The position numbers and the translations under genes are program-made. Shown piece by piece: positions 1 through 61,606 of a DNA stretch of 64,000 bases. Numbering within the stretch: the first letter of the stretch is position 1; each line of letters begins with the position of its first letter. A model generated the notes under the pieces. The model saw only the letters and a program-made list of their open reading frames with translations, had not been told where the DNA came from and ran no database searches. Location of the stretch: positions 1,024,001 to 1,088,000 of the forward strand of contig CAVPLT010000004.1 in NCBI GenBank assembly GCA_963706325.1, given 5' to 3'. Origin of the DNA: an uncultured Nitrospiraceae bacterium (GTDB taxonomy: Bacteria > Nitrospirota > Nitrospiria > Nitrospirales > Nitrospiraceae).

Positions 1-1269
1 GCCGATGCGATCGAACAGCTCGAACGCCTGAAGCCGTGGCTGGTGGTCACGGATCTGAAGATGCCGCGGTTGAACGGACTCGAACTGGTCAAGGCCATCA
101 AACAGAAGGCTCCGCACACGTTCATTATCCTTATGACTGCTTACGGCACGGTGGAGACTGCAGTGGAAGCGATGAAGTATGGCGCCAACGACTACATCTT
201 GAAGCCCTTTTCTACCGATTTGCTGGAGCGGGTCATTCTCAATTTGCAGGCGACCACGGCAACGGACGAGCAAGAGAATCCGGCCACATTAGAAGCGAGG
301 CCTATCTTAACCCAAGACCCCGGCATGATTCGGCTCCTCACGACCTTGGAGGGTGTCGCGGCGAGCCAAGCCACCGTGTTGATCAGCGGCGAAAGCGGCA
401 CGGGAAAAGAGCTGTTGGCGCGCTACATCCACGCGCGAAGCCCTCGCGCGCATCGTCCATTCGTGGCCTTGAATTGTGCCGCGCTTCCGGACAGCCTCTT
501 AGAGAGCGAGCTCTTCGGGCATGAGCGAGGCGCCTTCACCGGAGCCATTCAGAAAAAACTGGGCAAGTTTGAAATGGCCCACACCGGCACCCTGTTTTTG
601 GATGAAATCAGCGAGATGAATTTGGGATTGCAGTCCAAACTGCTGCGGGTGTTGCAAGAGCGCGAGGTCGATCGTATAGGCGGGCGGGAGCCGGTGCCGG
701 TGAATATCCGGGTGATCGCCACGACTAATCGCTCGCTGTACCATGAAGTGACCCAGGGACGATTTCGCGAAGACCTCTTCTATCGATTAAATGTGTTTCC
801 CGTCACCGTACCTCCGCTCCGTGAGCGGCCTGGGGATATCCCGCTCCTGGCCAGGCACTTTCTCCGCGTTTCGGCTCAACGAAATAGTCTGACAATGCCC
901 ACCTTGTCCGAACGCGCCGTGGCGGACCTGCAATGCCGGCCATGGAAGGGCAATGTGCGTGAATTGGAAAATGTGATGGAACGCGCCATTTTAGTGGCCG
1001 GCGGGGCCGCCGTGGACGTGGATCATCTGTTGCCCGGCGATGGTACGGTCATCGTCCGGGAACCCGACACGACGGAATCCATTCTACCGTCTTCCAGCCA
1101 CGGATCATTGTGGGAGATGGAGCGCGACCTCATCTTTAAAACCTTGGCCAGGGTAAAAGAGAACCGCACGCATGCCGCAAAAGAATTAGGCATCAGTATT
1201 CGAACCCTTCGGAACAAACTGCGGGAATATCGCGGCATGGGCTATCCATTGGAAGCGGAAAAGTCTTAA
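1..1269 (+). CDS. Sigma54-dependent response regulator (REC-AAA+-Fis HTH; FlrC/FleR/NtrC-like), 5'-truncated
   Basis: Frame open from base 1. REC 'VTDLKMP...MTAYG...LKPF', Walker A GESGTGKE, GAFTGA loop, 'FLDEI', C-terminal HTH 'NRTHAAKELGISIRTLRNKL'. Confidence 0.93.
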   Translation, partial: ADAIEQLERLKPWLVVTDLKMPRLNGLELVKAIKQKAPHTFIILMTAYGTVETAVEAMKYGANDYILKPFSTDLLERVILNLQATTATDEQENPATLEARPILTQDPGMIRLLTTLEGVAASQATVLISGESGTGKELLARYIHARSPRAHRPFVALNCAALPDSLLESELFGHERGAFTGAIQKKLGKFEMAHTGTLFLDEISEMNLGLQSKLLRVLQEREVDRIGGREPVPVNIRVIATTNRSLYHEVTQGRFREDLFYRLNVFPVTVPPLRERPGDIPLLARHFLRVSAQRNSLTMPTLSERAVADLQCRPWKGNVRELENVMERAILVAGGAAVDVDHLLPGDGTVIVREPDTTESILPSSSHGSLWEMERDLIFKTLARVKENRTHAAKELGISIRTLRNKLREYRGMGYPLEAEKS

Positions 1270-4293: not shown

Positions 4294-5289
4294 ATGAGCA
4301 AGGAACTGTCGGGCGCACAAAAAGCTGCGATTCTATTACGGGCCATCGGGGAGGAAGCCGCCGCAAGCGTCATGAAGGCGCTTGACCCGAAGGATATTCG
4401 AAAGCTCGGGTCCTTTATGAAGGAAACGGCGAATATCACCAAGCAAGAAGAAGAAAGTGTGATCGCTGAATTCGAACAGGCAAGTTCTTCCGGCGAAGTG
4501 CAGTTCGAAGGCCGAGAGTTTATGGAAGCCATCTTGAAAAAAGCGCTGGGCCCCGATAAGGCCGCCCGAATGCTGGATTCTCTAAATACTAAGACCTATC
4601 CCGGCATCGATGCCCTGAAATGGGTGGATCCCCGCACCGTGGCGCAGATTCTAAAAGTCGAGCACCCGCAGACAATTGCCGTATGCCTTGGACAGATGGA
4701 AGCGGAGCAAGCAAGCGCCGTCCTCGCTTTGCTGCCGGTGCATCTACATGCCGACGTCTCGCTCCGGCTGGCCACCATGCAGGAGGTACAGCCAGACGTG
4801 CTTGCGGAGTTGAGCGAGAGTCTGCAGGAAATTCTGGCCGCCTCAATGGGAATGTCCAGTATGACGGTAGGCGGAACCGAACTGATGGCCAACATCCTGA
4901 CGCGAGTCGATAAGAACACCGAAGGCGCCATCATGACCAAAATTACCGAACACGATCAAACGTTGGCCGACAGTATTCGAGCGCTGATGTTTGTCTTCGA
5001 TGATCTGATTGACCTGGACTCCCGAGGCATGCAAGAGCTGATGAAAGAGATTAGCAAAGAAGATCTCCCCGTGGCGCTCCGCGGAGCCGCTCCAGAGATC
5101 AAGGACAAGTTTCTGGCTAATATGTCCAGCCGAGCCTCCGAAATGCTGAAAGAAGACATGGAAGCGCGAGGGCCGGTCAAAGTGTCCGACGTCGAAAGAG
5201 CGCAGCAGAACATACTCAAAGTGTGTCGCAAGCTGGAGGAGGAAGGTCGCATCGTCATCGGTGGGGGCGGGGGCGAGGAGTTGATGTAG
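4294..5289 (+). CDS. fliG: Motor switch protein FliG
   Basis: 'QKAAILL', 'EHPQTIA', 'MFVFDDL', 'NMSSRA'. Confidence 0.96.
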   Translation: MSKELSGAQKAAILLRAIGEEAAASVMKALDPKDIRKLGSFMKETANITKQEEESVIAEFEQASSSGEVQFEGREFMEAILKKALGPDKAARMLDSLNTKTYPGIDALKWVDPRTVAQILKVEHPQTIAVCLGQMEAEQASAVLALLPVHLHADVSLRLATMQEVQPDVLAELSESLQEILAASMGMSSMTVGGTELMANILTRVDKNTEGAIMTKITEHDQTLADSIRALMFVFDDLIDLDSRGMQELMKEISKEDLPVALRGAAPEIKDKFLANMSSRASEMLKEDMEARGPVKVSDVERAQQNILKVCRKLEEEGRIVIGGGGGEELM

Positions 5290-6339
5290 ATGGGAACCCT
5301 TGCCCTGCGAGCATCGTCGGCTCTGTCGTCTGCCCCAGTATCCGAGAAGGAGCTCTCGCCACGAGCCATCTTGGTCGTAGACGATGAACCGGCCATCTGC
5401 TTACTGTTGACCGAAATGCTGAGTTCCACCGGTCACCCTGTGCTCACCGCCCCTTCCGCGGACGAAGCGCTGGCGCAACTGCGCAGACACCCGATTGCCG
5501 TGCTGATTGTTGACGTGCAATTGGCCACCACCGATGGAATTGCCTTCTTGGAACGGGCGCTGGAAGTCGATAGCCGCATTCTGAGCATCATCATGACCGG
5601 GCATGGCAACATCGAGCTGGCCGTTCGTGCCATGAGAGCCGGGGCTGCGGATTTTTTAACCAAGCCGTTTCAAATCGAATTGGTACGTCTAGCCGTCTCG
5701 CGTCTGCTGGAACTATACCGCTTGCGACAAGAGAATACCGTGCTCACGCGAACTTTGATTCGCTCAGGGAATATCCAGTTGCGGACGGTGCCCTTGGCGG
5801 ATTTTAGCCGCGGCAACAAGTTGTTCGGCACCGATGATGTGACGGAATTTGAACGAGGAGTCGCGGAGGGTGAAAAGCGAGCGACGGAACGCGTGTCGGC
5901 CACGCGAAGTCAGGAGCAGGCATTGGTGACCGCGCTCATGGCCCAACTGGAGCACACGTGGCGCGGGTTGCATGAGACCGTGGAAGAGGAAGTCACGTCG
6001 CTGGCATTCACGATCGCCCAGAAGGTTTTACGCGATGTTGTCACCGAGACACGCGATGTCATCGTAGCGCAAGTACGCGCGGCGCTCGCGCATCTGCATG
6101 AAAGCGGGCTTGTGCGAATCCGCGTGCATCCCTCCGATCTCGCCGTGCTGGAGTCCTCCCGGGCCGCATTGAGCCAGACCCCGCACGGGCTTCTCAGTTT
6201 GAAATTTGAATCCGATCCGAGCATCAGCCCAGGAGGATGCCTGGTGCACGCATCAAGCCTATTGGTTGATGCGACATTAGATACGCAACTGCTGCGGCTG
6301 GGTGACGCGTTACGAAAGCGAGAAACCGGTGAAGCTTAG
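5290..6339 (+). CDS. fliH: FliH with an N-terminal response-regulator receiver domain
   Basis: N-half REC (VVDDE, IVDVQL, MTGHG, TKPF); C-half FliH ('FERGVAEG', 'IRVHPSD', 'ISPGGCLV', 'VDATLDTQL'); lies between fliG and fliI. Confidence 0.88.
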   Translation: MGTLALRASSALSSAPVSEKELSPRAILVVDDEPAICLLLTEMLSSTGHPVLTAPSADEALAQLRRHPIAVLIVDVQLATTDGIAFLERALEVDSRILSIIMTGHGNIELAVRAMRAGAADFLTKPFQIELVRLAVSRLLELYRLRQENTVLTRTLIRSGNIQLRTVPLADFSRGNKLFGTDDVTEFERGVAEGEKRATERVSATRSQEQALVTALMAQLEHTWRGLHETVEEEVTSLAFTIAQKVLRDVVTETRDVIVAQVRAALAHLHESGLVRIRVHPSDLAVLESSRAALSQTPHGLLSLKFESDPSISPGGCLVHASSLLVDATLDTQLLRLGDALRKRETGEA

Positions 6340-7636
6340 CGAGCGGCTCGAACAAGTTGAACCGCTCTCCGTGACAGGGCGTGTCGCTCAAGCGGTCGGC
6401 ATCGTGATTGAGGCCTCCGGTCCCTTCACCTCGGTGGGGGAAGTCTGCGAAATTACCCGCGAGGGAGGCCATGGCTCTGTCATGGCGGAGGTCGTCGGCT
6501 TTCGGGAAGACCGTGTTCTGCTGATGCCCCTCGGAGAAATGCAGGGTATTGGGCCTGGAAGCCGTGTGGTGATGAAGGGGCATGTCGCATCCGTGCCGGT
6601 CGGACCACAGATGCTCGGTCGGATTCTTGACGGACTGGGCCATCCGCTCGACGGCTTGCCGCCCGTTCGCGCCGAGGCGCGGGTTCCGCTGTACGCTGCG
6701 CCACTTAACCCTCTGCATCGTGCCCGGATTACACAGCCTGTCGATCTGGGGATTCGAGCGATCAATGCGCTCCTGACCTGCGGGCAGGGACAGAAAATCG
6801 GCGTGTTTGCCGGGTCAGGGGTCGGAAAAAGCGTCCTCTTAGGCATGATCAGTCGATACACGCAGGCTGACGTGAGGGTCATTGCGCTCGTGGGGGAACG
6901 AGGCCGCGAAGTGAAAGAATTCTTGGAGCGCGACCTCACACCGGAAGCCCGAGCCCGATCGGTCGTGGTAGTGGCGACTTCAGATCAACCCCCCCTCGTG
7001 CGTATACGCGGTGCGTTAGTGGCGACCGCCATTGCAGAATATTTTCGCGACTGCGGCAAGCATGTGCTCTTGATGATGGACTCTCTATCCAGGTTAGCCT
7101 ACAGCCAGCGGGAGGTTGGATTGGCCATCGGCGAACCTCCGACAACAAAGGGTTACACACCCTCGGTGTTTTCGGTTCTGCCGAAGTTGTTGGAACGAGT
7201 CGGACCGGCGCAGAGCGGGGGTAGCATTACCGGACTCTACACGGTGCTGGTTGACGGTGACGATCTCAATGATCCGGTGGCCGATGCCGTGCGCTCCATC
7301 CTCGACGGGCATATCGTGTTATCTCGTGAACTCGCGGCGAGAAATCATTTCCCTGCTATCGACATTTTGCAGAGCACGAGCCGTGTGATGCGGGATATCG
7401 TGACACCGGCGCATTACGCAGCCGCACGATTGGTGCTCGAACGCACGGCGATGTACCGCAGATCCGAAGATTTGATTACCCTGGGGGCGTACAAACCGGG
7501 GAGCAGCAAAGAACTCGACAAAGCCGTGACGGCTCACGACGGCATCACAGGATTCTTGCGTCAGGAGATTCAGCAGCCGATCGGCTTTCCTCAGTCCCTC
7601 GACGCGTTGCAAGCCCTTGCGGGAAGCATTCAATGA
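6329..7636 (+). CDS. fliI: Flagellar export ATPase FliI
   Basis: Walker A 'AGSGVGKS', 'GERGREV', 'GEPPTTKGY', 'LDGHIVLSR'; GTG start is approximate. Confidence 0.96.
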   Translation: MKLSERLEQVEPLSVTGRVAQAVGIVIEASGPFTSVGEVCEITREGGHGSVMAEVVGFREDRVLLMPLGEMQGIGPGSRVVMKGHVASVPVGPQMLGRILDGLGHPLDGLPPVRAEARVPLYAAPLNPLHRARITQPVDLGIRAINALLTCGQGQKIGVFAGSGVGKSVLLGMISRYTQADVRVIALVGERGREVKEFLERDLTPEARARSVVVVATSDQPPLVRIRGALVATAIAEYFRDCGKHVLLMMDSLSRLAYSQREVGLAIGEPPTTKGYTPSVFSVLPKLLERVGPAQSGGSITGLYTVLVDGDDLNDPVADAVRSILDGHIVLSRELAARNHFPAIDILQSTSRVMRDIVTPAHYAAARLVLERTAMYRRSEDLITLGAYKPGSSKELDKAVTAHDGITGFLRQEIQQPIGFPQSLDALQALAGSIQ

Positions 7637-8073
7637 ACCTGAGAGTGCTTCGAACGTACGCGTTGCAACTCGAAGAGGTCGCCAAGCTGGAACTGTCTGA
7701 ACTTTCACAAACGTTGCAGCAGACAGTTGAGCGAATGACGACGCTGGATTCGCAGACCCGCGAGGATGCCGACCGGTATTTGCTGCAGGTGCGGGAGGGG
7801 ACCACAGTCGATCAGGCGTATGCTCAGCTCGACGCCATGGATCAGGCCATTGCCGCTCGCAAAGGATTGGAACAGGCGCATGCCGCACAACAACTCCAAT
7901 GGTCGACCAAGCGCGATGCATTGCTCGAGGCGATGCAATATCGAAAGAAACTGGATCTTCTGGGCGCACGGGCCATTCAAAAACAATGCCGTCATCAGGA
8001 ACAGCAGGACCAACAATTACTCGATGAGCGTGCTTGGCGACGGAGTCCGTCGAAATTGGGAGACCAGGCATGA
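7633..8073 (+). CDS. fliJ: Export chaperone FliJ
   Basis: 146 aa coiled-coil protein after fliI with ATGA overlap; 'QEQQDQQLLDE' C-terminus. Confidence 0.8.
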   Translation: MNLRVLRTYALQLEEVAKLELSELSQTLQQTVERMTTLDSQTREDADRYLLQVREGTTVDQAYAQLDAMDQAIAARKGLEQAHAAQQLQWSTKRDALLEAMQYRKKLDLLGARAIQKQCRHQEQQDQQLLDERAWRRSPSKLGDQA

Positions 8074-8714
8074 CCTCGATTGAACGGTTCAATCGGGCGG
8101 AAGCTCGAACGTTCCGTCTCTACAGACTGCTGCGCGCGACCGTCGCCCTCGCGCTGACAGGCCTTCTTTTCGCGGCAATTTCGGCGTCCGCCGCGGGACC
8201 GACCACCGAGCCTCCCCCCTTGGAGGATGAGACGTTGCCCCCCAGCGTCAAGAGTACTCTTCAAGGACCCGCGATCAGTGCGCCGCGAGAGATCCTCGAC
8301 ATGTTAGAACAGCGACGGCGCTTCCTGGATAAACGAGAAGCCGCACTGCGGGGGGCCGATACGCACCTTCTGGAGTTGAAGTCTGAACTGGAGCAGATCG
8401 TCACTCGTCACGAGAAGCTCGTTGAGGCTGAAAGGAAACGGGCTCAGGCAACGTTGGCTAAAACCTCGACTGAAGCCGACAAATCGAAAGATCCCCGGAA
8501 TCCCGGTGCGCGCAATGTCAATCAAGCGCAATTAGCAAAAATCTATGAGGCCATGCCTCCGGAAGAAGCCGCGGCGCGTCTGGAGAGGATGCCTGAACGG
8601 AAAGCGCTGGAGGTACTTCGGCTCCTTAAGGGCAAATCCGCGGGCTCCATCCTCGCTGAAGTCAAACCAGACCGCGCGGCTCGTTTGACCGAGCAACTGC
8701 TGAGCAGTCCCTAA
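8070..8714 (+). CDS. MotE/FlbB/YlxF-like protein (signal or TM segment, coiled coil, MgtE-N-like C-terminus)
   Basis: 'LAKIYEAMPPEEAAARL...AGSILAEVKPDRAARLT'; usual position between fliJ and fliK. Confidence 0.75.
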   Translation: MTSIERFNRAEARTFRLYRLLRATVALALTGLLFAAISASAAGPTTEPPPLEDETLPPSVKSTLQGPAISAPREILDMLEQRRRFLDKREAALRGADTHLLELKSELEQIVTRHEKLVEAERKRAQATLAKTSTEADKSKDPRNPGARNVNQAQLAKIYEAMPPEEAAARLERMPERKALEVLRLLKGKSAGSILAEVKPDRAARLTEQLLSSP

Positions 8715-22998: not shown

Positions 22999-23874
22999 AT
23001 GATTTCCCCTCATCGAGGCCCCACAGGTTTGAACGCGCACCGCCGGCGGGGGTCGGCAAAAATGCCTTCATCGTCCGAGGATAATGGCCCGGCCGCGTTC
23101 AATACGGCGCAATTCGGCGTCATGGCCTGCATTTTATTCATGGCCGGAGGCTTGTATTGGACCGCGTCGGTTGGGCTGCTCACCCTCTCGGCTCTGAGAG
23201 CCTATCCAGTCATGATCTGGATGGGAGGCAGCGCGCTGGCCCTGGTTGTCCTCGGAACTTCTTTTTGGTCCTCTCGAGGTCGTGCGGTGGGCCCTTCGGA
23301 TCAATCTCTGAGCAACGAATCAAATCGTGCTTGCACGAGCACCTACGATTCAGTGACCGGTCTTCCTACGAACCGCCTTTTCAGATCCCTTCTCAACCAA
23401 GCTCTCTCCAGAGCCGGCAAAAATGGTCGTCAAGTCGCAATTCTCGTCGTAGAGATGGATTACTTTACGTTGTCGACCGAATTACACGGGCAGGTGAATC
23501 ACAACCTCATCTACCGAGTTCAGGCCGCTCGTGTGAAGAGTGCGTTGCGGACGACGGACTGTGTTGCCAGACTGGCTGAACGCACCTTTGCCGTTCTATT
23601 GGAACAGGTGACGAATGTTGAGGAGGTCGTGGCTGCGGCGACAAAAATGCAGGCCATCGTTTCGCTGCCGTTTACCCTCGACGGATATGACATCTTCCTC
23701 ACGAGTCGTATCGGCATCAGCCTCTCGACTTCCGACGATATTGAAGCCAGCTCCCTGCTTGATTCAGCCGCCCAGGCTGTTGCAATCGCGCGAGCCGAAG
23801 GGTATGCGTTGTATGGGCTCCATGGCGCGGTCTCGACTCCGCACGTTGATTCTTCCTCCACGATCGCTGCCTAA
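22999..23874 (+). CDS. Membrane-anchored degenerate GGDEF-domain protein
   Basis: Two hydrophobic N-terminal helices; 'YDSVTGLPTNRLF'; active site reads 'RLAERTF'; RxxD (RTTD) retained. Start uncertain. Confidence 0.8.
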   Translation: MISPHRGPTGLNAHRRRGSAKMPSSSEDNGPAAFNTAQFGVMACILFMAGGLYWTASVGLLTLSALRAYPVMIWMGGSALALVVLGTSFWSSRGRAVGPSDQSLSNESNRACTSTYDSVTGLPTNRLFRSLLNQALSRAGKNGRQVAILVVEMDYFTLSTELHGQVNHNLIYRVQAARVKSALRTTDCVARLAERTFAVLLEQVTNVEEVVAAATKMQAIVSLPFTLDGYDIFLTSRIGISLSTSDDIEASSLLDSAAQAVAIARAEGYALYGLHGAVSTPHVDSSSTIAA

Positions 23875-33125: not shown

Positions 33126-35960
33126 TCAGGCAGGACGGATCTGTTTTCTCAGCACTTCGACAAGTTGCTGAATGGTCCGTTGAAGTTGGATGACAAGTGC
33201 CGGAGCATCAGCGAGGGTCCCGAGGCGTCCGGTCGCCTCTAACTGACCGGCCAGCAACACCACGTCCGGCGCGCACAGATTTCCCGCCGTGCCTTTCATA
33301 CTATGAGCCGCCCGCTCGAGCGCGACGCTATCGGCTTGGCTGATGGCGAGTTCAATATCCCGCACCATTGTGGGATGTCGGTCCAGGAATAGCCGGATGA
33401 GTTGATCGAAGAGTTCAATATCTCCACCAATGTTCGTCAGCATCGTGCTTGCATCAAAAATACTTGCATCACTCTTGGACATCTCGCGGGGAGGAAGAGG
33501 GGGCGGCGCGTCCTCAACCGCCGACAACGGAACCCATCGCTGCAGGATTCGTCCAAGATCGTCGATCTTGACCGGTTTTGAGAGGTAGTCGTCCATCCCG
33601 GCGGCTTTGCAGCGCTCCCGGTCCCCTTGCATGGCATTCGCCGTGAGGGCAATGATGGGAATGTGGGCGCGATCCCGGGCAGCCTGGAGCCGTTGTTCCT
33701 GTTCGCGGATATGGCGCGTGGCCTCATATCCGTCCATCACGGGCATTTGACAATCCATGACGATCGCCGAATACACTTCTCGTTCAAATGCTGCCAGCGC
33801 GTCGTTCCCATTGGAGACAATGTCCGGCTGATAACCCAGGCGCTCGAGCATCCGCACCGCGAGCTTTTGATTCACCAGATTATCTTCTGCAACCAAAATG
33901 CGTGGGCGAATCCGTTGTTCCGCCAAAGTATGTCGAGTAATGAGCGTCGGCGCCATGCCCACTGATAGGCCAGTCTCACTCATCATGGCCGCAGGCGGTT
34001 GCTGGAGGCCGAACACCCCCCGGAGGCAACCTTGTAGCTGGTCATGGCGAACGGGTTTGGTGAGGTAGGCGTTGAATCCGGCGCGGCGCGCGCGCTCGGC
34101 ATGCCCGGGCTGAATCAGCGACGTTAGGACAATCAGTCGCATGTCTGCGCCTTGAGGATGCGCCTTGATCTCCTGAGCCAGTTGGAGGCCGTCTTTTCCC
34201 GGCATGAGCATATCGAGCACCGCCACGTCATAAGGCGTACCATTGGAGGCCGCCTGATTCAGCCTCTGCATCGCTTCGACGGCATTCTGTGCTTGAGCGT
34301 CTAGCATCCCCCATCCGGACACGAGGTGATGCAAGATCGTTCGGTTGGATTCATTATCGTCGACGATCAGGATCCGACGTCCGGTCAACTCTACCGACGG
34401 AACGATGGCCGGGGAACAGACCGCTTGTTTCTGGAATTTGGCCGTGCACCAGAACGTCGTCCCATGGCCAAGTCGGCTGCGCACCCCCACTCTTCCTCCC
34501 ATGAGCTCAATCAATTGTTTGGAAATGGCGAGGCCTAAACCCGTCCCACCATATTTGCGAGTCGTGGAACTGTCGGCTTGAGTGAACGGTTGGAACAGAC
34601 GCGCCTGCACCTCCTCGCTGATCCCGATGCCGGAATCAGTAACTTCAAACCTGATCGCGACTTCGGCCGGGGCGTCGTGTTCAAGAAAGGCCTGCAGCGT
34701 GACTTCTCCGCTTTCCGTAAACTTGATGGCATTGCCCACAAAATTCGTCAGGATTTGTCGGAGGCGTCCCGGGTCGCCGCGCAGTGCGTTAGGTACGGCG
34801 GCATGGACCAGACCGGTGATTTCCAGGCCTTTTCGCTGGGCGCGTTCCGCGAACTGGGACAAGACATCTTCTACCGTCGTGCGCAGGTGAAACTCCAGAG
34901 TCTCCAACTCCAGCTTACCGGCTTCGATCTTGCTGCATTCGAGGACATCGTTGATGAGGCAGAGCTGAGCTTCTCCGCATTGCTGGATCGTTTGTGCGAA
35001 GGAACGCTGCTCTTCCGCGAGCGGCGTGTCCAGGAGCAGGCTGGCCATGCCGATCACGCCGTTCATCGGGGTGCGCAACTCATGACTGATGGTGGCCAGA
35101 AATGTGGATTTAGCGTGAGTCGCCGCATGCGCCTGTTGCAGGGCTTGATCCAACTGACGATTGCTCTCACGAAGATGGTCCGCCGTATCGTTGAGCGCTC
35201 GGTGGGTCATGAACACTTCACTCAGATCAACCGCATACGCCCGTACGAGTCCGTGGCTGGGGACTGGACAAAGCGTCCAACGGTAACAGGCATCCCCCCG
35301 TATAACTTCGTGAGACGCCAGCGGTCGTCCCTCTTGCAGACAGGTTGCCACGAGTTCGGGAAGTTTCTCCGGAAGAATATCCGGTTGACCGTCGAGGTCA
35401 TACCCAAAGCGACAGAGCACTTCGATCATCGCTGGATTCACATACAGGAGGTTGCCCTCGCGATCAAGTTCGACGATCGGATAGGGACTTTCTTCAGCGA
35501 TGGTGGCCAAACGGTTACGATCGCTTTCCAACTCCAGTTCGTGGGAAGCATCTCGCAGAGTCAGTAAGGCGGTGGCGGACTCAATTCCTGACACACGAAG
35601 GTACTGCCATTCCACCACGGTGACGATGCGCTGTTCTGGCGTATCAGTTGTGTGAACTGGTTCGGCGCTCACCGTCCGTCCTCCTGCCAGTTTCCAAACT
35701 CCTGTGACTTGGAGGGACCCCTTGATGTCGAGCTGATGCCCGACAATCTCCGATAGTGTTTTCCCCACACAGTCGCGTGAAGATCGACGGAGTAGGCGGC
35801 TTGCCGAGCGATTCACGAACAGCAGGGTCTGTTCGGCGGACAACAAACACATGCCCAAAGGCACGGCGTCCCACAGTAACATCCCCAGGTCCGATGGGAG
35901 AGAAAACTCTCCCCCATCGGAAAGCGAGGTAGCACGTGAATGAGGCTTGCGATTCACCAT
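33126..35960 (-). CDS. Cytoplasmic hybrid histidine kinase (PAS-PAS-HisKA-HATPase-REC-REC-Hpt)
   Basis: H-box 'SHELRTPMNG', 'NAIKFT', 'GGTGLGL', REC 'LDMLMP' and 'MDCQMP', Hpt 'AHSMKG'; no obvious TM helix. Confidence 0.93.
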   Translation of the reverse strand: MVNRKPHSRATSLSDGGEFSLPSDLGMLLWDAVPLGMCLLSAEQTLLFVNRSASRLLRRSSRDCVGKTLSEIVGHQLDIKGSLQVTGVWKLAGGRTVSAEPVHTTDTPEQRIVTVVEWQYLRVSGIESATALLTLRDASHELELESDRNRLATIAEESPYPIVELDREGNLLYVNPAMIEVLCRFGYDLDGQPDILPEKLPELVATCLQEGRPLASHEVIRGDACYRWTLCPVPSHGLVRAYAVDLSEVFMTHRALNDTADHLRESNRQLDQALQQAHAATHAKSTFLATISHELRTPMNGVIGMASLLLDTPLAEEQRSFAQTIQQCGEAQLCLINDVLECSKIEAGKLELETLEFHLRTTVEDVLSQFAERAQRKGLEITGLVHAAVPNALRGDPGRLRQILTNFVGNAIKFTESGEVTLQAFLEHDAPAEVAIRFEVTDSGIGISEEVQARLFQPFTQADSSTTRKYGGTGLGLAISKQLIELMGGRVGVRSRLGHGTTFWCTAKFQKQAVCSPAIVPSVELTGRRILIVDDNESNRTILHHLVSGWGMLDAQAQNAVEAMQRLNQAASNGTPYDVAVLDMLMPGKDGLQLAQEIKAHPQGADMRLIVLTSLIQPGHAERARRAGFNAYLTKPVRHDQLQGCLRGVFGLQQPPAAMMSETGLSVGMAPTLITRHTLAEQRIRPRILVAEDNLVNQKLAVRMLERLGYQPDIVSNGNDALAAFEREVYSAIVMDCQMPVMDGYEATRHIREQEQRLQAARDRAHIPIIALTANAMQGDRERCKAAGMDDYLSKPVKIDDLGRILQRWVPLSAVEDAPPPLPPREMSKSDASIFDASTMLTNIGGDIELFDQLIRLFLDRHPTMVRDIELAISQADSVALERAAHSMKGTAGNLCAPDVVLLAGQLEATGRLGTLADAPALVIQLQRTIQQLVEVLRKQIRPA

Positions 35961-37231
35961 TAGTTTCCGATCAAGGCAGTTTCGAAATATACGGGGAGAT
36001 CCACATGTTCCTGATTGGGATCCAATGCGCGAAGAATCGTGCGCGTCGGCTCGTCCGGATTGGTAGTCGTGAGATCGACATCGATCGGGATTTTGTGCGG
36101 ATCGCCGGTAGGCCCACTGATAATGCGGATTCTCGGTTTCAAGCGGTCGGTGTGATTAAGGCCAGTCACGACGGCCTTCTCACTGGTATTGAGCTTGATG
36201 AGACTTCCGATGGGATAGACGCCTAGGGACTTGATGGCGACCTCGATCAGCGCCTTGTCGTACCGGCCTTTTTCGCCCAGCACGAAGAGTTGGCGAATGG
36301 CATCATGGGGCAGGAGGGGAGGACGGCCGGGACGCGCGCCGACCAAGCCGTCGTACGTATCCGCCAGGCCGACAAGCTGAGCCAGTGTGGATATGGATCC
36401 GTTCTTCACTTTATTCGGAAATCCGCTACCGTCCAGGCATTCATGATGTTGCGCGATGATGCGTGTGACTGCCTCCGGCAGTGGATCTCCTTGCGAGAGC
36501 ACTACGGCGGCCAATTGCGGATGTTGCTGCATGAGTGTCTTCTCATGCTCGGTCAACGCGCTTGATTTCCGATAGACATTACGCGGGAGGCGCACATAGC
36601 CGATGTCATGGAGCAGTGCCCCGACACCGAGGGTTGCTCGATCGGCTTCATCACATCCGTATTCCACTCCGACAATAAGGGCCAGGACACAGACATCGAT
36701 CCCATGGGAAGCGAGCGTGCGATCATAGCGTCGCATTTTTTCGAGAAAGAATTCCGTCATCATCGATTCAGGATGCGCCAGAATCCGGCTGACCAGACCG
36801 ATGACAATGTGTTTGAGGGTCACCATCTTCGGTGACCGTCCGGCTTCGAGTTCGTTGAATATGCGTTCCATGGACTCCAGCGCTTCCCTGTAGGTGGCCT
36901 TGGATGCCGCGGCTTGCTGGGCACTGGTGTCGGGAGGTGTATCGACGTGATCGGACAGGGCCGACGGCTCATCGGTCAGCGCTGTAGGGGCAACCGGTTC
37001 TGTGCTCGCAACGCCGGCGTGTTCCGTCGGAACATCACCGATGTCTGCGCCGCGCTCCAGGTCAATAGTGACCTCGCGTATGCCATGTCGCATGAGTTGA
37101 GTGATGTCGTCGGGATTCGTCACGAGCCACTTGTGAAGCAGAAACGGCGTGCGATACCAGGGCTGATCCATGCCCACGATATACATTCCGAGTTTTAACT
37201 GGGCGACAGGAATGCGTTTGGTAGAATCCAT
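35960..37231 (-). CDS. HD-GYP phosphodiesterase with DUF3391-like N-terminus
   Basis: 'LKLGMYI..MDQPW..PFL', 'LLHDIG', 'HHECLDGSGFP', 'YPIGSL'; start at ATG 37231 (MDSTKR). Confidence 0.88.
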   Translation of the reverse strand: MDSTKRIPVAQLKLGMYIVGMDQPWYRTPFLLHKWLVTNPDDITQLMRHGIREVTIDLERGADIGDVPTEHAGVASTEPVAPTALTDEPSALSDHVDTPPDTSAQQAAASKATYREALESMERIFNELEAGRSPKMVTLKHIVIGLVSRILAHPESMMTEFFLEKMRRYDRTLASHGIDVCVLALIVGVEYGCDEADRATLGVGALLHDIGYVRLPRNVYRKSSALTEHEKTLMQQHPQLAAVVLSQGDPLPEAVTRIIAQHHECLDGSGFPNKVKNGSISTLAQLVGLADTYDGLVGARPGRPPLLPHDAIRQLFVLGEKGRYDKALIEVAIKSLGVYPIGSLIKLNTSEKAVVTGLNHTDRLKPRIRIISGPTGDPHKIPIDVDLTTTNPDEPTRTILRALDPNQEHVDLPVYFETALIGN

Positions 37232-37304
37232 ACCTAGGGTGTGCCTGGTGGCGCGAGGACTATGAGACGCGAGAGGTGACTGGCTTGTCTCCCCCGTAGG
37301 GTTC

Positions 37305-37332
37305 ATATCGGTTGATGTCAAGCCGTCCTTAA
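37305..37332 (-). promoter_or_regulatory. Sigma28 promoter of the HD-GYP/hybrid kinase operon
   Basis: Minus strand TTAAG-N15-ACCGATAT. Confidence 0.78.
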
Positions 37333-37363
37333 CTCCATGCGATGCGTCAGGTCGGCGCATCGC

Positions 37364-37391
37364 TTGAGAATGTGGGGAATTGCACCGATAT
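37364..37391 (+). promoter_or_regulatory. Sigma28 promoter of the PilZ brake gene
   Basis: TTGAG-N15-ACCGATAT. Confidence 0.68.
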
Positions 37392-37443
37392 CACCCATCA
37401 GCGTCCGTTTGTGCAGGTTCGTCCGCATGAGAGGGAGAAGGTT

Positions 37444-38157
37444 GTGAGCGAACATGTCGTCCCCTGTTCACCATCCGCCTTCCTTGCAGTGGGGCTCTCG
37501 CTACAACTCACTTTACCTCAGGATGAGGCACACGTTCAGTACGGTTCGTCCTTGCTGGGATGGAAGCAGGGCAGTTGGCTGATTGGCGAATGGCCGTTTC
37601 ATCTCGGGAAACCCATTCCTTGCAGTCCAGGCACGCACGTGATGCTGCGGTATATCTATCAAGGCAAAATGATCGGGTTCCACAGCGAGGTGCTGGCAAC
37701 CCAAGTCGAGCCATTTCCATTTTTGTTGCTGACGTTTCCCTCGACACTGGATGAAGTGCCCCTTCGCAGACATTGCCGGATGCCGTCGAACGAACCGATC
37801 CTTCTGCGTCATGTAAATGACGCAGCCCCCGCTCGCCCGTCGGAAACATTGACGCATATCGGAGGGTTGCTCATAGATCTAAGCGCCACAGGCTGCGCAG
37901 TCCTCCTGCAACGACCAGTGCGGGATTTTTTGCCCGGCATGGTCCTCAGAGTTGAATTTGAAATCGTGGGCACTGGCCGAGTCGACAATTTAGCAGGCTT
38001 AGTTCGAAATATCGCAATGCAGGGCGGCGAGACGTTGCTGGGCTTGGAATTTCAGTTCGACGGTAAGGAAACGATCGAATATCGCGGCTGGGGCGGCTCG
38101 GTACAGAAGGCGCTCGATGCGTTCATTCTGCGGCGACACTCGTTCGAGTCGCCCTAG
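37444..38157 (+). CDS. YcgR/DgrA-like flagellar brake (PilZN + PilZ)
   Basis: RxxxR 'LRRHCR' and DxSxxG 'DLSATG'; GTG start after GAGGGAG. Confidence 0.82.
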   Translation: MSEHVVPCSPSAFLAVGLSLQLTLPQDEAHVQYGSSLLGWKQGSWLIGEWPFHLGKPIPCSPGTHVMLRYIYQGKMIGFHSEVLATQVEPFPFLLLTFPSTLDEVPLRRHCRMPSNEPILLRHVNDAAPARPSETLTHIGGLLIDLSATGCAVLLQRPVRDFLPGMVLRVEFEIVGTGRVDNLAGLVRNIAMQGGETLLGLEFQFDGKETIEYRGWGGSVQKALDAFILRRHSFESP

Positions 38158-38347: not shown

Positions 38348-39553
38348 ATGACGATTATGACTCTTCACGCCCATAGTGCCGGACTCAATCCTCGATGGTG
38401 TCTTGCACAGGACACGATTGATCAGCAAGACATTGATCGGCTGATCGCCTGGCTGGGCACGTATCCACGACTCACCAAAGGGGCAATCACCCTCGACTTC
38501 GAACGGCAATGGTCGGATTGGCTAGGGCGTCCTTATTCGGTCAACTGCAATTCCGGCTCATCGGCGAACTTACTGATGTATTACGCGCTTCTCCGGTCGG
38601 GTACCTTGCGAAACACAAGCGTCATCGTGCCCAGCGTCGGATGGGTGACGTCCATCGCTCCCGCCATTCAGTTTGGCTTTACCCCCATCATGTGCGAAGC
38701 GGATCCGGATACATTCGGACTCGATCTAAACCATCTGGAAGAACTCCTGAAACGTCATGAACCGCACACGGTCCTGCTGGTGCAGGTGCTGGGGGTCCCC
38801 CATCGCATGACTGAGTTGCAGGCGCTCAAAGACCGTTACGGGTTTTATCTTCTGGAAGACGCCTGTGCTGCAATCGGAGCGGAATACGAAGGCAAGAAAG
38901 TAGGAACCTTCGGCGACATGGCGAGTTTCTCATTTTATTTCGGGCACCAGATGTCCACTATCGAGGGCGGCATGGTGTCTACCAGTGACAAGCGGTTGGC
39001 GGATCTGCTGTTGATGTTGCGCAGCCATGGATGGAGCAAGGACCTGGATCCCGTCAGGCACCAGGCATTGGTCTCGGAGTATCAGATCGACGACTTTCAC
39101 GCTCCCTTTGTGTTTTATGAGCCGGGCTTCAATCTGCGCTCAACCGACTTGAACGCGTTTATCGGCATTGAGCAACTTCGCAAGCTGGATTGGATGACCG
39201 GTCGCCGGCAGGCGAACCACGCGCTGTATCTGGAGAAGCTCGGAGCCCGTTTTTATACGCAACGTCCGCCCAAGGACAGTAAGGTGTCCAGCATCTCATT
39301 CGGCCTCCTTGCGGACTCTCCGGAGCAACGACGACGGATTGTTCGAGCACTTGTCGCCGAAGGAGTTGAGACGCGCATTTTCTCCGCCGGCAACTTAGGC
39401 CTACATCCGTTCTGGATAAACCGCTATGGGAAAGCGAGCTTTCCAATCGCTGATCGAGTGCATTACTGCGGGTTTTTCCTGCCTAATCATGCGTTGATGA
39501 ATGAACAAGACGTAAGCCAGATCGCCCGGGTCGTACTGGAGGCCGCAGGATGA
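38348..39553 (+). CDS. DegT-fold PLP/PMP enzyme, ColD-like NDP-4-keto-sugar 3-dehydratase
   Basis: 'NSGSSANL', 'LLEDAC'; 'SFYFGHQMSTIEGG' has no Schiff-base Lys and carries His, as in ColD/E1-type enzymes. Confidence 0.75.
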   Translation: MTIMTLHAHSAGLNPRWCLAQDTIDQQDIDRLIAWLGTYPRLTKGAITLDFERQWSDWLGRPYSVNCNSGSSANLLMYYALLRSGTLRNTSVIVPSVGWVTSIAPAIQFGFTPIMCEADPDTFGLDLNHLEELLKRHEPHTVLLVQVLGVPHRMTELQALKDRYGFYLLEDACAAIGAEYEGKKVGTFGDMASFSFYFGHQMSTIEGGMVSTSDKRLADLLLMLRSHGWSKDLDPVRHQALVSEYQIDDFHAPFVFYEPGFNLRSTDLNAFIGIEQLRKLDWMTGRRQANHALYLEKLGARFYTQRPPKDSKVSSISFGLLADSPEQRRRIVRALVAEGVETRIFSAGNLGLHPFWINRYGKASFPIADRVHYCGFFLPNHALMNEQDVSQIARVVLEAAG

Positions 39554-39688
39554 GCTTGTCTCTCCCGCAACGCGTGCATTCAGCTGTGGTCTGCCATCTG
39601 CCCGTCATGAGCCTGCGCCCTGTGCCGGTCGCCCCGGCAGAACCACCCCAACCTTACGATCTTCACGCATAAGGGAGCTTGTTCGACC

Positions 39689-40636
39689 ATGACGACACCT
39701 GGAACACATGTGCTCGTGACCGGCGGAGCGGGCTATATCGGCTCCGTGCTCAGCCGACAGCTGCTTGATCGAGGATATCGGGTGACGGTCCTGGATAATT
39801 TTCTCTATCGTCAGAACAGTCTGATGGACTGTTGTGGCGAAGACGGTTTCCAGGTAGTTCGCGGTGACTGTCGCGATGAACGACTGATCACTGATTTGCT
39901 GCGGCATGCGGACATCATTATCCCGCTCGCGGCCCTTGTGGGCGCCCCTCTCTGCGATCGAGACCGGATCGGGGCCTACACGGTAAATTATGAAGCGGTG
40001 CAGCTGCTCTGCAAACTCTCATCGCCTCAGCAACAAATTATTTTTCCCGTCACCAACAGCGGCTATGGGATCGGAACGCCGGGCGTGGCTTGCACCGAAG
40101 ATTCCCCGCTTCGCCCCATCAGTCTGTATGGCGAGACCAAAGTGAAAGCGGAGCGAGTCGTGCTGGATCGTGGCAATGCCATTACCCTCCGTCTCGCGAC
40201 GGTGTTTGGGGTTTCACCTCGAATGCGGATGGATTTACTCGTCAACGATTTTGTCTGGCATGCCGTGCATGACCGGGCGGTCGTCGTCTTCGAAGGTCAC
40301 TGCAAGCGGAACTATATTCACCTGCGGGATGTCGTGCGCGCATTTCTTCACGCGATCGATCATTTCGGTCAGATGAAGGATCGGCCCTACAACGTGGGGC
40401 TAGATGACGCGAATCTGTCGAAGCTCGAACTCTGCCGGGAGATTCAGCGAATCATTCCTCACTTCGTGTCCTTTGAAGCACCCATCGGCGAGGATCCTGA
40501 TAAGCGGGACTACATCGTGTCCAATCAGCGATTACTGGCAACCGGGTTCAAGCCGGATTGGTCCTTGGAGCGCGGGATCCGTGAACTGATCAAGTGTTAC
40601 ACGATTATCAAAGCCGGACAATATGCCAATGTTTAA
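39689..40636 (+). CDS. NAD-dependent SDR, Cj1427-like GDP-D-glycero-alpha-D-manno-heptose C4-dehydrogenase
   Basis: GGAGYIG, YxxxK 'YGETK'; blocks 'ADIIIPLAALVGAPLC', 'RLATVFGVSPRMRMDLLVNDF', 'IGEDPDKRDY' recalled from Cj1427. Confidence 0.78.
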   Translation: MTTPGTHVLVTGGAGYIGSVLSRQLLDRGYRVTVLDNFLYRQNSLMDCCGEDGFQVVRGDCRDERLITDLLRHADIIIPLAALVGAPLCDRDRIGAYTVNYEAVQLLCKLSSPQQQIIFPVTNSGYGIGTPGVACTEDSPLRPISLYGETKVKAERVVLDRGNAITLRLATVFGVSPRMRMDLLVNDFVWHAVHDRAVVVFEGHCKRNYIHLRDVVRAFLHAIDHFGQMKDRPYNVGLDDANLSKLELCREIQRIIPHFVSFEAPIGEDPDKRDYIVSNQRLLATGFKPDWSLERGIRELIKCYTIIKAGQYANV

Positions 40637-40666
40637 GGCGACACCACGCGAGGAAGGACGTGCAGA

Positions 40667-41737
40667 ATGATTATCAGCCGCACACCTTTCCGCATGTCAT
40701 TTTTCGGAGGTGGCACCGATTATCCGGTGTGGTTTCGCGAGCACGGCGGAGCTGTTCTCGCCACGACCATCGATAAGTATTGCTATATCACCTGCCGGCG
40801 TCTTCCGCCTTTTTTCGAGCACCGCACCCGCATCGCCTACTCGCGCATTGAGCTGGTGAACAATCATCAGGAGATCGAGCATCCGGCGGTACGCGGCGTG
40901 CTCAAGTATCTCAATATCAACGACGGTCTCGAAATCCACCACGACGGGGACTTGCCTGCCCGCACGGGACTGGGCTCCAGCTCCTCATTTACAGTGGGCC
41001 TGCTGCACACGCTATACGCATTGCAGCACATCATGCCGAGTAAAGCGCAGCTCGCGCAGGCGGCCATTCATGTCGAGCAGGATGTGCTGGGGGAAGCCGT
41101 CGGGTGCCAGGATCAGGTGCTTGCCGCGCAAGGCAGCCTCTGTCGGGTCAATTTTTTTCAGAACGGGGAGATCGGCCATACGCCGATCGTGATTCGGCCG
41201 GAACGGCTCGCCGCGTTTCAGGACCATCTGCAACTCTACTTCACAGGATTTTCACGGATCGCTTCCGAGGTGGCGCGTGAGCAAATCGACCGGACTAAAC
41301 AACGCCAGGGCGAACTCTTCACCATGCTGCAGATGGTCGAAGAAGGTATTGCCGTGCTCACCGGCAATCGCGATCTGGTTGAGTTCGGAACATTACTGCA
41401 TGACGCCTGGATGCTGAAACGCCGGCTGACCTCCCGCATTACCACCCCGGCCATCGACGATATTTACACCGCAGCCAGATCGGCTGGGGCGCTAGGCGGA
41501 AAATTATTGGGCGCGGGGGGCGGAGGGTTCATGTTGTTCTTTGCAAAACCTGAAGATCACCAGCGGATCCGGCTGGCCTTGCCGGGCTTGTTGCAGGTGC
41601 CGTTCAAATTCGAAGGGCTGGGGAGTCAGATCGTGTTTTATCAGGAGGACCATCTCATGCTGGATGACGTCTGGGCGCAGAGTTCGGCTCAGACGGCCTC
41701 CCAATTAAAAGCCGCTCTCATTGGAAAGGCGGCCTGA
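40667..41737 (+). CDS. hddA: GHMP kinase, D-glycero-D-manno-heptose-7-phosphate 1-kinase (HddA-like)
   Basis: 'TPFRMSFFGGGTD', 'GLGSSS', 'GCQDQ', 'KLLGAGGGGF'. Confidence 0.8.
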   Translation: MIISRTPFRMSFFGGGTDYPVWFREHGGAVLATTIDKYCYITCRRLPPFFEHRTRIAYSRIELVNNHQEIEHPAVRGVLKYLNINDGLEIHHDGDLPARTGLGSSSSFTVGLLHTLYALQHIMPSKAQLAQAAIHVEQDVLGEAVGCQDQVLAAQGSLCRVNFFQNGEIGHTPIVIRPERLAAFQDHLQLYFTGFSRIASEVAREQIDRTKQRQGELFTMLQMVEEGIAVLTGNRDLVEFGTLLHDAWMLKRRLTSRITTPAIDDIYTAARSAGALGGKLLGAGGGGFMLFFAKPEDHQRIRLALPGLLQVPFKFEGLGSQIVFYQEDHLMLDDVWAQSSAQTASQLKAALIGKAA

Positions 41738-41739
41738 CG

Positions 41740-42501
41740 ATGAGCGCGCTTACCGACTGCGATGTCATCATCCTGTGCGGAGGGCTGGGCACTCGGCTTC
41801 AATCCGTCGTGCAAGATCGTCCAAAATCGATGGCCGAAATTCACGGCCGCCCATTCGTTTCTCTGATCGTCGATCACTACGTGCGCCACGGCGCGCGCCG
41901 ATTCATTTTCAGCACGGGTCACCGCGGCGAGATGATCGAAGAATGGTTCGGGCGCCACCGTGGGTCCTACGACACGATGTTTATCCGCGACCCCACGCCG
42001 CTCGGGACCGGCGGAGCCCTGGCACAAGCCATGACATTGGTGCGGAGCAATCCTGTCCTGGTGCTGAACGGGGATTCTCTGTGCGAGATCGATCCGTCGC
42101 GGCTGTTGCGCTTTCATGCGCTCAAACGAGCGCGCGCGACCGTCGCGGTGACCCATCAAGAGGACCGGCCAGACACAGGATCGGTCATACTGGCCGAGGA
42201 CGATCGTGTGCTCTCGATAATTGAAAAACCACGGATTCGCATGAGCGGCTACGACAGTGCTGGAATTTATGTGATTGATCGCGCCATTTCGTCGCTCTTT
42301 CCATCCAACAGTCCTTGGTCGCTAGAACGGGACCTGCTTCCCAAACTGGTGACGCAAGGGTTCTATGGATTCGTGACCGCAAGCTCACTGTACGATATCG
42401 GCACACCCGACCGACTGGCGCGGTTTCGGGATGTCTGGCAAGAGACGTCGTCCCACCTGCCGATACACTCGCGCCACCATGCACAAGGATCGGTCGCGTA
42501 A
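41740..42501 (+). CDS. hddC: Sugar-1-phosphate nucleotidyltransferase (HddC-like guanylyltransferase)
   Basis: 'ILCGGLGTRL..PKSM', 'LGTGGAL', 'LNGDS', 'DIGTP'. Confidence 0.75.
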   Translation: MSALTDCDVIILCGGLGTRLQSVVQDRPKSMAEIHGRPFVSLIVDHYVRHGARRFIFSTGHRGEMIEEWFGRHRGSYDTMFIRDPTPLGTGGALAQAMTLVRSNPVLVLNGDSLCEIDPSRLLRFHALKRARATVAVTHQEDRPDTGSVILAEDDRVLSIIEKPRIRMSGYDSAGIYVIDRAISSLFPSNSPWSLERDLLPKLVTQGFYGFVTASSLYDIGTPDRLARFRDVWQETSSHLPIHSRHHAQGSVA

Positions 42502-43721
42502 TGGCGCCTCGCACCGCACTCGCTGCCTCGCCCGATCACAACCTTTCCTTCTCCGATCGAGGAGAGCGATTGATCGGCCAGGAAATGTTTCGGGTGCTGG
42601 ATCGCGCTCAAACCTTGGAACGCCAGGGCCACTATATTTATCACTTAGAATTGGGCAACCCGCGTATGGCGCCTCCGCCTCAAATTATTGACGCGACCAT
42701 GCAGGCGCTTCGAGCCAAACAACTCGGTTATGCGCCAATGGCCGGCATCAGTGAGTTGCGCGCGGCAGTGGCCGCTCGATATTCACTGCTGACGGGGCAC
42801 CCGTTGACGGATGCTCATGTCGTCATCAGCCCGGCGAATCTTCTTATTCACCAATTTCTCGACATTACCTGCGATCCCGGCGATCGCCTTGTCCTGTTCA
42901 TGCCGGCATTTCCCTCCTACTTGGCCGCGGCCAGCCATTTGGGACTTCATGTCACCGCCATACCGCTGACTGAAGCAGAAGGGTTTCATCTCACGCGCGA
43001 GAGCGTGGAACAGGCACTTTCAAACAGGCCGAAAGCGATCATCCTGAACAACGCCAACAATCCAACCGGAGCCTTGTACAGCCAGGCTATTGTGCAAGAG
43101 CTTACGAGCCGCTGCGAGGAAGCAGGAATTTGGCTCTTGAGTGACGAAACCTACGCCGATCTATCCTTTGACGAGTCCTTCTCCACGCTGGCGTCCTCAG
43201 AGTCAGTCCATGTGGTGGCAATCTCCTCGTTTTCAAAGGTGTTTTCTATCCCGGGATTCCGGACCGGCTATGCGTTGGCCCATGAAGCGGTCACGACAAA
43301 ATTGGCGCTGTCCAATTCAACGCTCTATTCCTGCCTTCCCGCTTTCACTCAACTGGGTTGCCTCGCCGGACTGGGGGTCATGGACAAATACCTTGCGGAG
43401 GTTCGGGCTCGCAGCGCGCGCCTGATTGGCACTTGCGCCGACCAGATCAACCGTTCCGGAGTCTTGCGCTGCCATGCACCGGAGTCGGGATTTTATCTCT
43501 TCATCGACATCGCCAGTACCAATCTTGACGACATGACCTTTTGCCGGCGGCTGCTCGACGAACAACATACGGCTGTCACACCGGGTCGTAGCTTTGGGGC
43601 AAACTACACGTCGTTTATTCGACTGGCTACATGTGGGCAGGAGGCAGATGTTCTCGAAGGCGTCTCACGCACCATCGCTTTTGCGCAGCACGTGGGAGGG
43701 TGCCATGTCCAAGCCGCTTGA
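42501..43721 (+). CDS. PLP-dependent aminotransferase, class I/II
   Basis: 'NNPTG', 'SDETY', 'SFSKVFSIPGFRTGY'; TAATG overlap with the upstream gene. Confidence 0.88.
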   Translation: MAPRTALAASPDHNLSFSDRGERLIGQEMFRVLDRAQTLERQGHYIYHLELGNPRMAPPPQIIDATMQALRAKQLGYAPMAGISELRAAVAARYSLLTGHPLTDAHVVISPANLLIHQFLDITCDPGDRLVLFMPAFPSYLAAASHLGLHVTAIPLTEAEGFHLTRESVEQALSNRPKAIILNNANNPTGALYSQAIVQELTSRCEEAGIWLLSDETYADLSFDESFSTLASSESVHVVAISSFSKVFSIPGFRTGYALAHEAVTTKLALSNSTLYSCLPAFTQLGCLAGLGVMDKYLAEVRARSARLIGTCADQINRSGVLRCHAPESGFYLFIDIASTNLDDMTFCRRLLDEQHTAVTPGRSFGANYTSFIRLATCGQEADVLEGVSRTIAFAQHVGGCHVQAA

Positions 43722-45213: not shown

Positions 45214-45234
45214 AAACAGAGGGAAGGAGTCTTC

Positions 45235-47073: not shown

Positions 47074-47083
47074 GGGGACCGTT

Positions 47084-57102: not shown

Positions 57103-57146
57103 CAACAATACGATGAAGGTGGATATCTTTTTGGAGGAGCCACGTC

Positions 57147-61329: not shown

Positions 61330-61606
61330 CTTCTCCATATTCCATCCGGCGTCTGCCGATACACCTCATCTCCTGACTCCGCTGGAAACGATACTGATCA
61401 GTCCTATTCTAACTAGCGCGCGAAATGCCACGGAAGGCAGATAGTGTACCACGCAATTCAGGCAAGCTTGAGATGGAAGAATAGCATGCGTCGCGCGCCG
61501 CTCATCGATGAGCGTTCTGCATCAGCCGGAAACCACGGTTGGGCGCGACACACTTTTAACCTTCTACAAGCCGAGCCACATCGCTATCCATAGACGAGGC
61601 GCTTTC

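Follow-up and report, generated by a model that had tools for sequence, protein, structure and literature searches.

A receiver domain fused to the flagellar export adaptor FliH in Nitrospiraceae, and its probable kinship with a sigma54 activator

The FliH gene, its surroundings and its distribution

The window, i.e., the whole stretch of 64,000 nucleotides that was analysed, comes from an uncultured Nitrospiraceae bacterium and lies in a flagellar gene cluster. It opens with the 3' part of a FleR-like sigma54 response regulator (1..1269, forward strand). Between fliG (4294..5289, forward strand) and the gene of the export ATPase, fliI (6302..7636, forward strand, given here as the longest ORF, with a true start possibly later), a single frame encodes a protein of 349 aa (5290..6339, forward strand). 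Its ATG abuts the stop codon of fliG, and a Shine-Dalgarno-like AGGAG within the end of fliG (5276..5280, forward strand) precedes this ATG by 9 nt. The original prediction had described the product as a FliH fused to an intact receiver domain, and this description is borne out by Pfam, which places both families in the same frame: Response_reg at residues 27-134 (E 7.6e-23, above the cut-off) and FliH at residues 208-336 (E 1e-21; 77.6 bits vs a cut-off of 24.1). The scores fall short of the NCBIfam FliH equivalog cut-offs (82.6 vs 180 for NF004270, 51.1 vs 200 and 49 vs 148.9), those models being lineage-specific. There is no second FliH match in the genome, which is 96% complete, and the copy in the window is thus its sole fliH.

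The protein, called REC-FliH hereafter, can be divided into consecutive parts with the help of an AlphaFold model (mean pLDDT 82). A leader (residues 1-25) is followed by a receiver domain of the NtrC-family type (residues 26-140; 5365..5709), by an extension of its helix alpha5 that resembles the coiled-coil linker of sigma54 activators (residues 141-158; 5710..5763), by what appears to be the native N-terminal peptide of FliH (residues ~160-185; 5767..5844) with a motif at 165-173 and a near-invariant F172, and by a long helix with a GxxxG repeat (G190, G194) corresponding to the dimer coiled coil of FliH (residues 186-253; 5845..6048). The C-terminal domain (PF02108, residues 208-336; 5911..6297) matches chain E of PDB 5B0O (E 5e-06) and is predicted to bind FliI. 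All these features are on the forward strand. The region between the receiver and the Pfam FliH domain is thus no bare linker, being made up of the activator-like helix, the FliH peptide and the GxxxG coiled coil.

Several other genes of the cluster touch on signalling or on the filament. A gene with an MgtE_N domain follows fliJ (8034-8714), in what we take to be a MotE/FlbB-like position. The cluster further has c-di-GMP components in a GGDEF gene after fliA (22999-23874) and, behind fliS, another PilZ gene (61508-62218). A signalling block (33126-38157) is composed of a hybrid kinase, a gene with DUF3391 and HD domains (HD-GYP-like) and a YcgR-type PilZ gene; the HD-GYP-like and hybrid pair is syntenic in the sister family, where it adjoins chemotaxis genes. 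The flagellin gene is immediately preceded by ~19 kb of genes for glycosyltransferases and sugar modification (38348-57689), among them those of a TPP enzyme, a B12 radical SAM protein and a multi-domain GT2/methyltransferase of 1786 aa; this is probably an island for the glycosylation of flagellin. Another flagellin-like ORF lies outside the cluster (G000:C7:331162-332013) and scores the same as the flagellin of the window against the flagellin of a relative. Matches to a consensus pattern of sigma54 promoters numbered 6 vs 4.95 expected by chance, and are uninformative.

The fusion recurs in related genomes. Both Pfam domains are present in 116 of the best 120 homologues out of 942 scored, at identities down to 42%, and the fusion is therefore no assembly or frameshift artefact. 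The other four of these 120 are shorter (199-244 aa) and have one domain each. The nearest named homologue among those listed is a Nitrospira sp. protein (93% identity). Longer fused forms (612-2000 aa) were looked for and none was found, which is weak evidence. We then mapped the fusion by domain content over 301 sampled genomes of the phylum, of which 150 have FliH. In the family of the window, FliH was found in 45 of the 57 other genomes; all 45 were inspected and 41 encode REC-FliH. One exception (G082) has an in-frame deletion of the receiver, which joins the leader to the end of the helix and retains the downstream segment, and the other three (G060, G260 and G284) represent three related genera with plain FliH. 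Outside the family, 104 genomes have FliH and the receiver was absent from it in all 15 that were inspected (0/15 fused). Among the matches listed for the remaining non-family genomes (all but 7), the FliH frames span 136-302 aa, bar one weak second match. Separate genes for receiver and FliH, the arrangement against which the original prediction had set the fusion, were found between fliG and fliI in none of the relatives examined. When a profile was searched against 1.84 billion representatives, 12 of the best 150 matches were full-length; nine of the 12 were looked up, and both of those that named an organism are Nitrospiraceae. In what was searched, REC-FliH is confined to one family; an independent fusion elsewhere could score below the best 150.

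The history of the fusion within the family is compatible with two scenarios. In a tree of FliG only, a fused genus (g4) branches outside the three plain genera, and a tree of FliG and FliI, which does not settle this branching, does not reject a single origin of the fusion (p-AU 0.23). One gain followed by losses and two gains both fit these trees. The architecture itself is already known by database annotation, and by annotation only: CUS31637.1, from a Ca. Nitrospira nitrificans cluster, has the same architecture (43% identical) and is named 'putative Flagellar biosynthesis protein FliH with response regulator receiver domain'. Many other records of REC-FliH in the family are named merely 'response regulator', so that fliH is easily overlooked in Nitrospira-family genomes.

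Kinship of the receiver and what FliH kept

A sigma54 activator heads the flagellar cluster 10.5 kb upstream, outside the window (G000:C4:1018792-1020216; L142:10792-12216), and is followed in order by a 723-aa TPR gene, a FleS-like kinase and the FleR-like gene. In the 20 upstream regions inspected, the activator is at the cluster head in 19 and the TPR gene is present in all 20. The position of the activator, which we take to be that of FleQ/FlrA, and likewise the names FleS and FleR, are assigned from gene order rather than from a family test. The activator itself has an intact Asp/Thr/Lys site. No conserved kinase gene was found upstream of it, the kinases there varying by lineage; in the outgroup genome G244, a gene upstream of the activator (L161:10413-13146) encodes a CheA-like kinase that carries a receiver at its C-terminus.

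We compared the receiver of FliH with the other receivers of the genome. A profile of residues 25-152, searched against all ORFs, gave 139 receiver-like matches, and the top non-self match was this sigma54 activator (144.5 bits; runner-up 109.4), with the FleR-like regulator at 90.6 bits. In a tree of 71 receivers (128 columns), 17 FliH receivers group with the activator receivers of the family (support 96/90). On a subset of 44 rows, the union of FliH and FleR receivers is rejected (p-AU 0.041), and a tree that unites the activators to the exclusion of the FliH receivers is not (p-AU 0.13). The FliH receivers may be nested in those of the activators or be their sister, and the two placements fit the sequences and cannot be told apart.

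The similarity extends beyond the receiver. In the model, alpha5 continues past the end of the domain as a helix spanning residues 129-158, and a motif at residues 148-156 fits 17 of 20 activator linkers vs three of 38 plain FliH N-termini (p<=0.05), for which reason we dropped the idea that residues 149-153 are the extreme N-terminal motif of native FliH. By these comparisons, the sigma54 activator is the closest relative of the receiver and its alpha5 helix, and it is the probable donor of the receiver. The alpha5 coiled-coil extension is missing in three of the 20 activators (G120, G074 and G123), and the FliH receivers of G120 and G074 retain it. The receivers of these three activators (L150, L148 and L147, respectively) group near the FliH receivers, possibly as a long-branch effect or by exchange between paralogues.

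Behind the activator-like helix, the native N-terminal peptide of FliH survives. A 9-residue motif learnt de novo from 38 plain FliH N-termini only (score 480; 357-362 with shuffled input) maps to residue 165 in 103 of the 125 fused rows; 33 of these placements reach p<=0.05, a threshold that none of 20 activator linkers passes. The score of the window protein itself has a p of 0.06, and the reverse test is weak (4/38 plain FliH N-termini at p<=0.05). F172 is conserved in 112 of the 114 rows, despite lying in a stretch with a pLDDT below 50; this low-confidence stretch (164-181) is probably disordered, judging from the model, and the segment between receiver and coiled coil varies in length among relatives. 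The GxxxG glycines, G190 and G194, are invariant in 102 rows. In Salmonella, the peptide ahead of the coiled coil of FliH binds FliM-FliN via W7, W10 and L15, and touches FlhA as well (PMC4443714, PMC7911332). By eye, the spacing of W7/W10/L15 recurs in the hydrophobic columns 164, 167 and 172. By sequence, residues ~160-185 are a probable docking segment for the C-ring and FlhA. A predicted complex of residues 143-192 with FliM-SPOA and FliN (median 0.52; 0.42 for an unrelated control) speaks neither for nor against this.

A free FliH made from an internal start would have undermined the original prediction, and we found no conserved internal start. Among 23 in-frame start-type codons of residues 1-215, only M1 and L212/V213 are preceded by a Shine-Dalgarno-like motif, and a start at L212/V213 would remove the docking peptide. 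A start at V151 was rejected as a conserved feature: 11 of 42 genomes have such a motif there, but 22 of 42 are without a start-type codon at that place, and GTG accounts for 20 of the 39 valine codons vs a background of 0.43.

The phospho-site, its possible kinases and the role of the receiver

The residues required of a working receiver had been reported from the reading of the sequence, and all are in place: D31-D32 (5380-5385), D75 in IVDVQL as the predicted phospho-acceptor (5512-5514), T103 in MTGHG (5596-5598) and K125-P126 in TKPF (5662-5667), with F122 as the aromatic switch residue. An alignment of 114 rows (the window protein and 113 of the 120 hits, leaving out 7 shorter than 315 aa) has D31, D75, K125 and P126 invariant in 114/114 and T103 in 112. 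Counted by genome, D75, T103 and K125 are each retained in 41 of 42; G123 has a pseudo-receiver, from which Asp, Thr and Lys are all gone together. The change D32A occurs in 6/42 genomes, and His105 of the GHG motif, present in the window protein, in 12/42 overall. The active-site Asp, Thr and Lys are constant among proteins sharing only 40-45% identity. Within three genera, the receiver has a pairwise dN/dS of 0.12-0.16 and the FliH part one of 0.10-0.17, using pairs with dS of 0.1-1.5 among kin that are not independent. The phospho-site is under purifying selection comparable to that on the FliH part. The model of the domain has the normal (beta/alpha)5 receiver fold and matches the receivers of NtrX (rmsd 1.2 A, 40% identity) and NtrC1 (TM 0.85-0.90), and also HupR and DctD. 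We infer from these sequences that the receiver is phosphorylated in vivo. The switch is dispensable in places, since the receiver was lost in frame in G082 and has degenerated in G123.

What could such a receiver do on FliH? The unphosphorylated receivers of NtrC1 and DctD are front-to-front dimers stabilised by a coiled-coil linker, phosphorylation alters the interface, and a GHG motif together with a long coiled-coil linker marks inactive dimers of this type (PMC10696123). Motif and linker are both found in the window protein, although only 12 of 42 genomes have His105. FliH, for its part, functions as a dimer (PMC7911332). We propose by analogy that the first ~157 residues of the activator of the cluster, i.e., receiver and alpha5 linker, were copied onto a complete FliH. 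Dimerisation of FliH would then set two receivers side by side, ~10 residues ahead of two docking peptides. Unphosphorylated, these receivers would pair front to front, with the coiled coil keeping them together, as in NtrC1 and DctD; phosphorylation of Asp75 would remodel this dimer, which would clamp or free the docking peptides. The change would tune the load of FliH2-FliI on the C-ring and FlhA, acting as a post-translational throttle on flagellar export. We give this reading, in which the receiver is a NtrC1/DctD-type dimer switch controlling the docking of FliH2-FliI, a probability of about 0.45; the switch, its effect on docking and the direction of this effect are all drawn from analogy.

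The phosphate donor would most likely be the kinase that acts on the activator, next to which no kinase gene is conserved. There are two local candidates. The first is the FleS-like kinase (G000:C4:1022559-1023854), outside the window and ~5.4 kb upstream of fliH. The second is the hybrid kinase that had been put forward originally (33126..35960, reverse strand), with the architecture PAS-PAS-HisKA-HATPase-REC-REC-Hpt; it is as described, with an Hpt domain, and its neighbours are fliW and the HD-GYP-like gene, the latter without a receiver. A close orthologue is present in 38 of the 41 fusion genomes (adjacent to fliW in 15, found by whole-genome search in 23), but these genomes are one kin group. 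Whole-genome searches did not find it in the fusion genomes G041, G074 and G123, and the FliH receiver of G074 is intact. It is present in G082, which lost the receiver, and was not found in the three family genomes with plain FliH (G060, G260 and G284). A suspected loss of the hybrid kinase in the D32A subgroup was rejected, five of these six genomes retaining it. In the sister family, the HD-GYP-like and hybrid pair lies in the flagellar/chemotaxis region of four of six genomes with plain FliH (32-35% identity, with the genes of the window as best hit, at loci picked from earlier matches); the hybrid kinase thus predates the fusion or is independent of it. No kinase tracks the presence of the FliH receiver cleanly among the genomes compared. 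Proximity is weak evidence in a genome with 143 REC, 85 HATPase_c and 7 Hpt matches, and the hybrid kinase is a candidate only. It could serve the activator and, through inheritance of the receiver, FliH as well. That one kinase signal is wired to flagellar transcription and to the loading of the export ATPase together is a tentative idea.

The same kinship could instead serve a checkpoint on transcription, with the FliH receiver acting as a decoy twin of that of the activator: free FliH would drain phosphate from a shared kinase or heterodimerise with the activator, and sigma54 flagellar genes would stay off until FliH has been bound in basal bodies. The nearest relative of the receiver is indeed that of the activator, dimer helix included, and the export apparatus controls sigma54 regulons via FlgS-FlgR in Campylobacter and Helicobacter (PMC3930126). 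However, an obligatory heterodimer is disfavoured because the activators of G120 and G074 lost the alpha5 extension (as did that of G123), yet the FliH receivers of G120 and G074 kept it, and a FleS/FleR pair able to provide such a checkpoint is already present. We consider this reading unlikely.

Ranked just behind it, and likewise doubtful, is the idea that the receiver is a structural or interaction module (a stabiliser of the dimer or a protein dock) without phosphorylation in vivo, or a tolerated passenger. The loss in G082, the degeneration in G123 and the absence of the receiver in three further family genomes would suit it, as would the report that FlbD, an activator of the orthologous type, does not depend on a sensor kinase (PMC3930126). 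It sits poorly with an Asp/Thr/Lys triad that is invariant at such low protein identity and was lost jointly in the sole pseudo-receiver, and with dN/dS values equal to those of the FliH part.

The original prediction went further than the dimer switch, holding that phosphorylation may directly gate the export ATPase. A signal would then run along the coiled coil of FliH to the activity of FliI or the formation of its hexamer, and precedents for control at this level are the inhibition of FliI by the C-terminal region of FliH (PMC7911332) and the allosteric regulation of FliI by c-di-GMP (PMC4591828). In the model, however, the low-confidence and length-variable stretch 164-181 interrupts the helix between receiver and coiled coil, and 68 helical residues, ~100 A, precede the FliI-binding domain. 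Because this stretch and helix separate the receiver from the FliI-binding domain, we favour control of docking; direct gating is left unsupported and seems improbable. Least probable is a CheY-like role, in which CheA would phosphorylate the tethered receiver and the receiver would bias or brake the motor through FliM: FliH is located at the C-ring, and genes of chemotaxis type, for an Hpt/HATPase kinase and for a single receiver, begin just past the window (C4:1088610-1091106), but the FliH receiver is of the activator-derived NtrC type and the neighbouring single-domain receiver is absent from its 30 best matches.

Comparison with known systems

Two-component systems are known to control flagella at the motor switch, through CheY, and at transcription, through pairs of the FleS/FleR type. 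With a receiver on FliH, the export ATPase complex itself would become a third point of control, and an intact receiver apparently copied from the activator suggests that a kinase signal may act on the machine that builds the flagellum as well as on the flagellar genes. If true, this would be a two-component switch inside a core component of type III secretion, and we found none described for the flagellum or the injectisome. We found no paper on a REC-FliH fusion, or on a receiver on SctL, in the open literature searched. Beyond the annotated architecture, what is new here is the kinship of the receiver and coiled-coil helix with the activator, and the native FliH peptide retained behind them. 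A switchable dimer beside the peptide that loads FliH2-FliI would be a natural tool to ask whether docking of the ATPase limits export, for which nature provides controls: the deletion of the receiver in G082 (L082), the pseudo-receiver of G123 (L118) and the plain FliH of the three sister genera. A further question that it touches is how slow-growing nitrifiers might put the costly assembly of flagella on hold.

REC-FliH combines traits of systems that are well described separately. Among activators in the FleQ/FlrA position, the one of this cluster has the receiver and linker nearest to those of FliH, and it retains Asp, Thr and Lys, whereas Pseudomonas FleQ is not known to have a working phospho-site. 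With the receivers of NtrC1, DctD and NtrX, the FliH receiver shares the fold, the full phospho-site and the alpha5 extension, and in the window protein a GHG motif whose His is found in a minority of the genomes, but its output is an adaptor of the export ATPase instead of an AAA+ domain, and it has no DNA-binding part. Unlike CheY, it is fused rather than single-domain, and its nearest receivers are those of sigma54 activators. The canonical FliH (Salmonella; PF02108; PDB 5B0O) has the same position between fliG and fliI, a disordered N-terminal peptide ahead of a GxxxG coiled coil and a C-terminal FliI-binding domain; REC-FliH differs from it by ~157 extra N-terminal residues with the receiver, and by a docking peptide that is internal and without the tryptophans W7 and W10 of the Salmonella peptide (PMC4443714). 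The control of FliI/HrcN by c-di-GMP (PMC4591828) is alike in placing a post-translational signal on the export ATPase complex, and differs in that the nucleotide binds the ATPase, whereas here a putative phospho-domain would sit on FliH.
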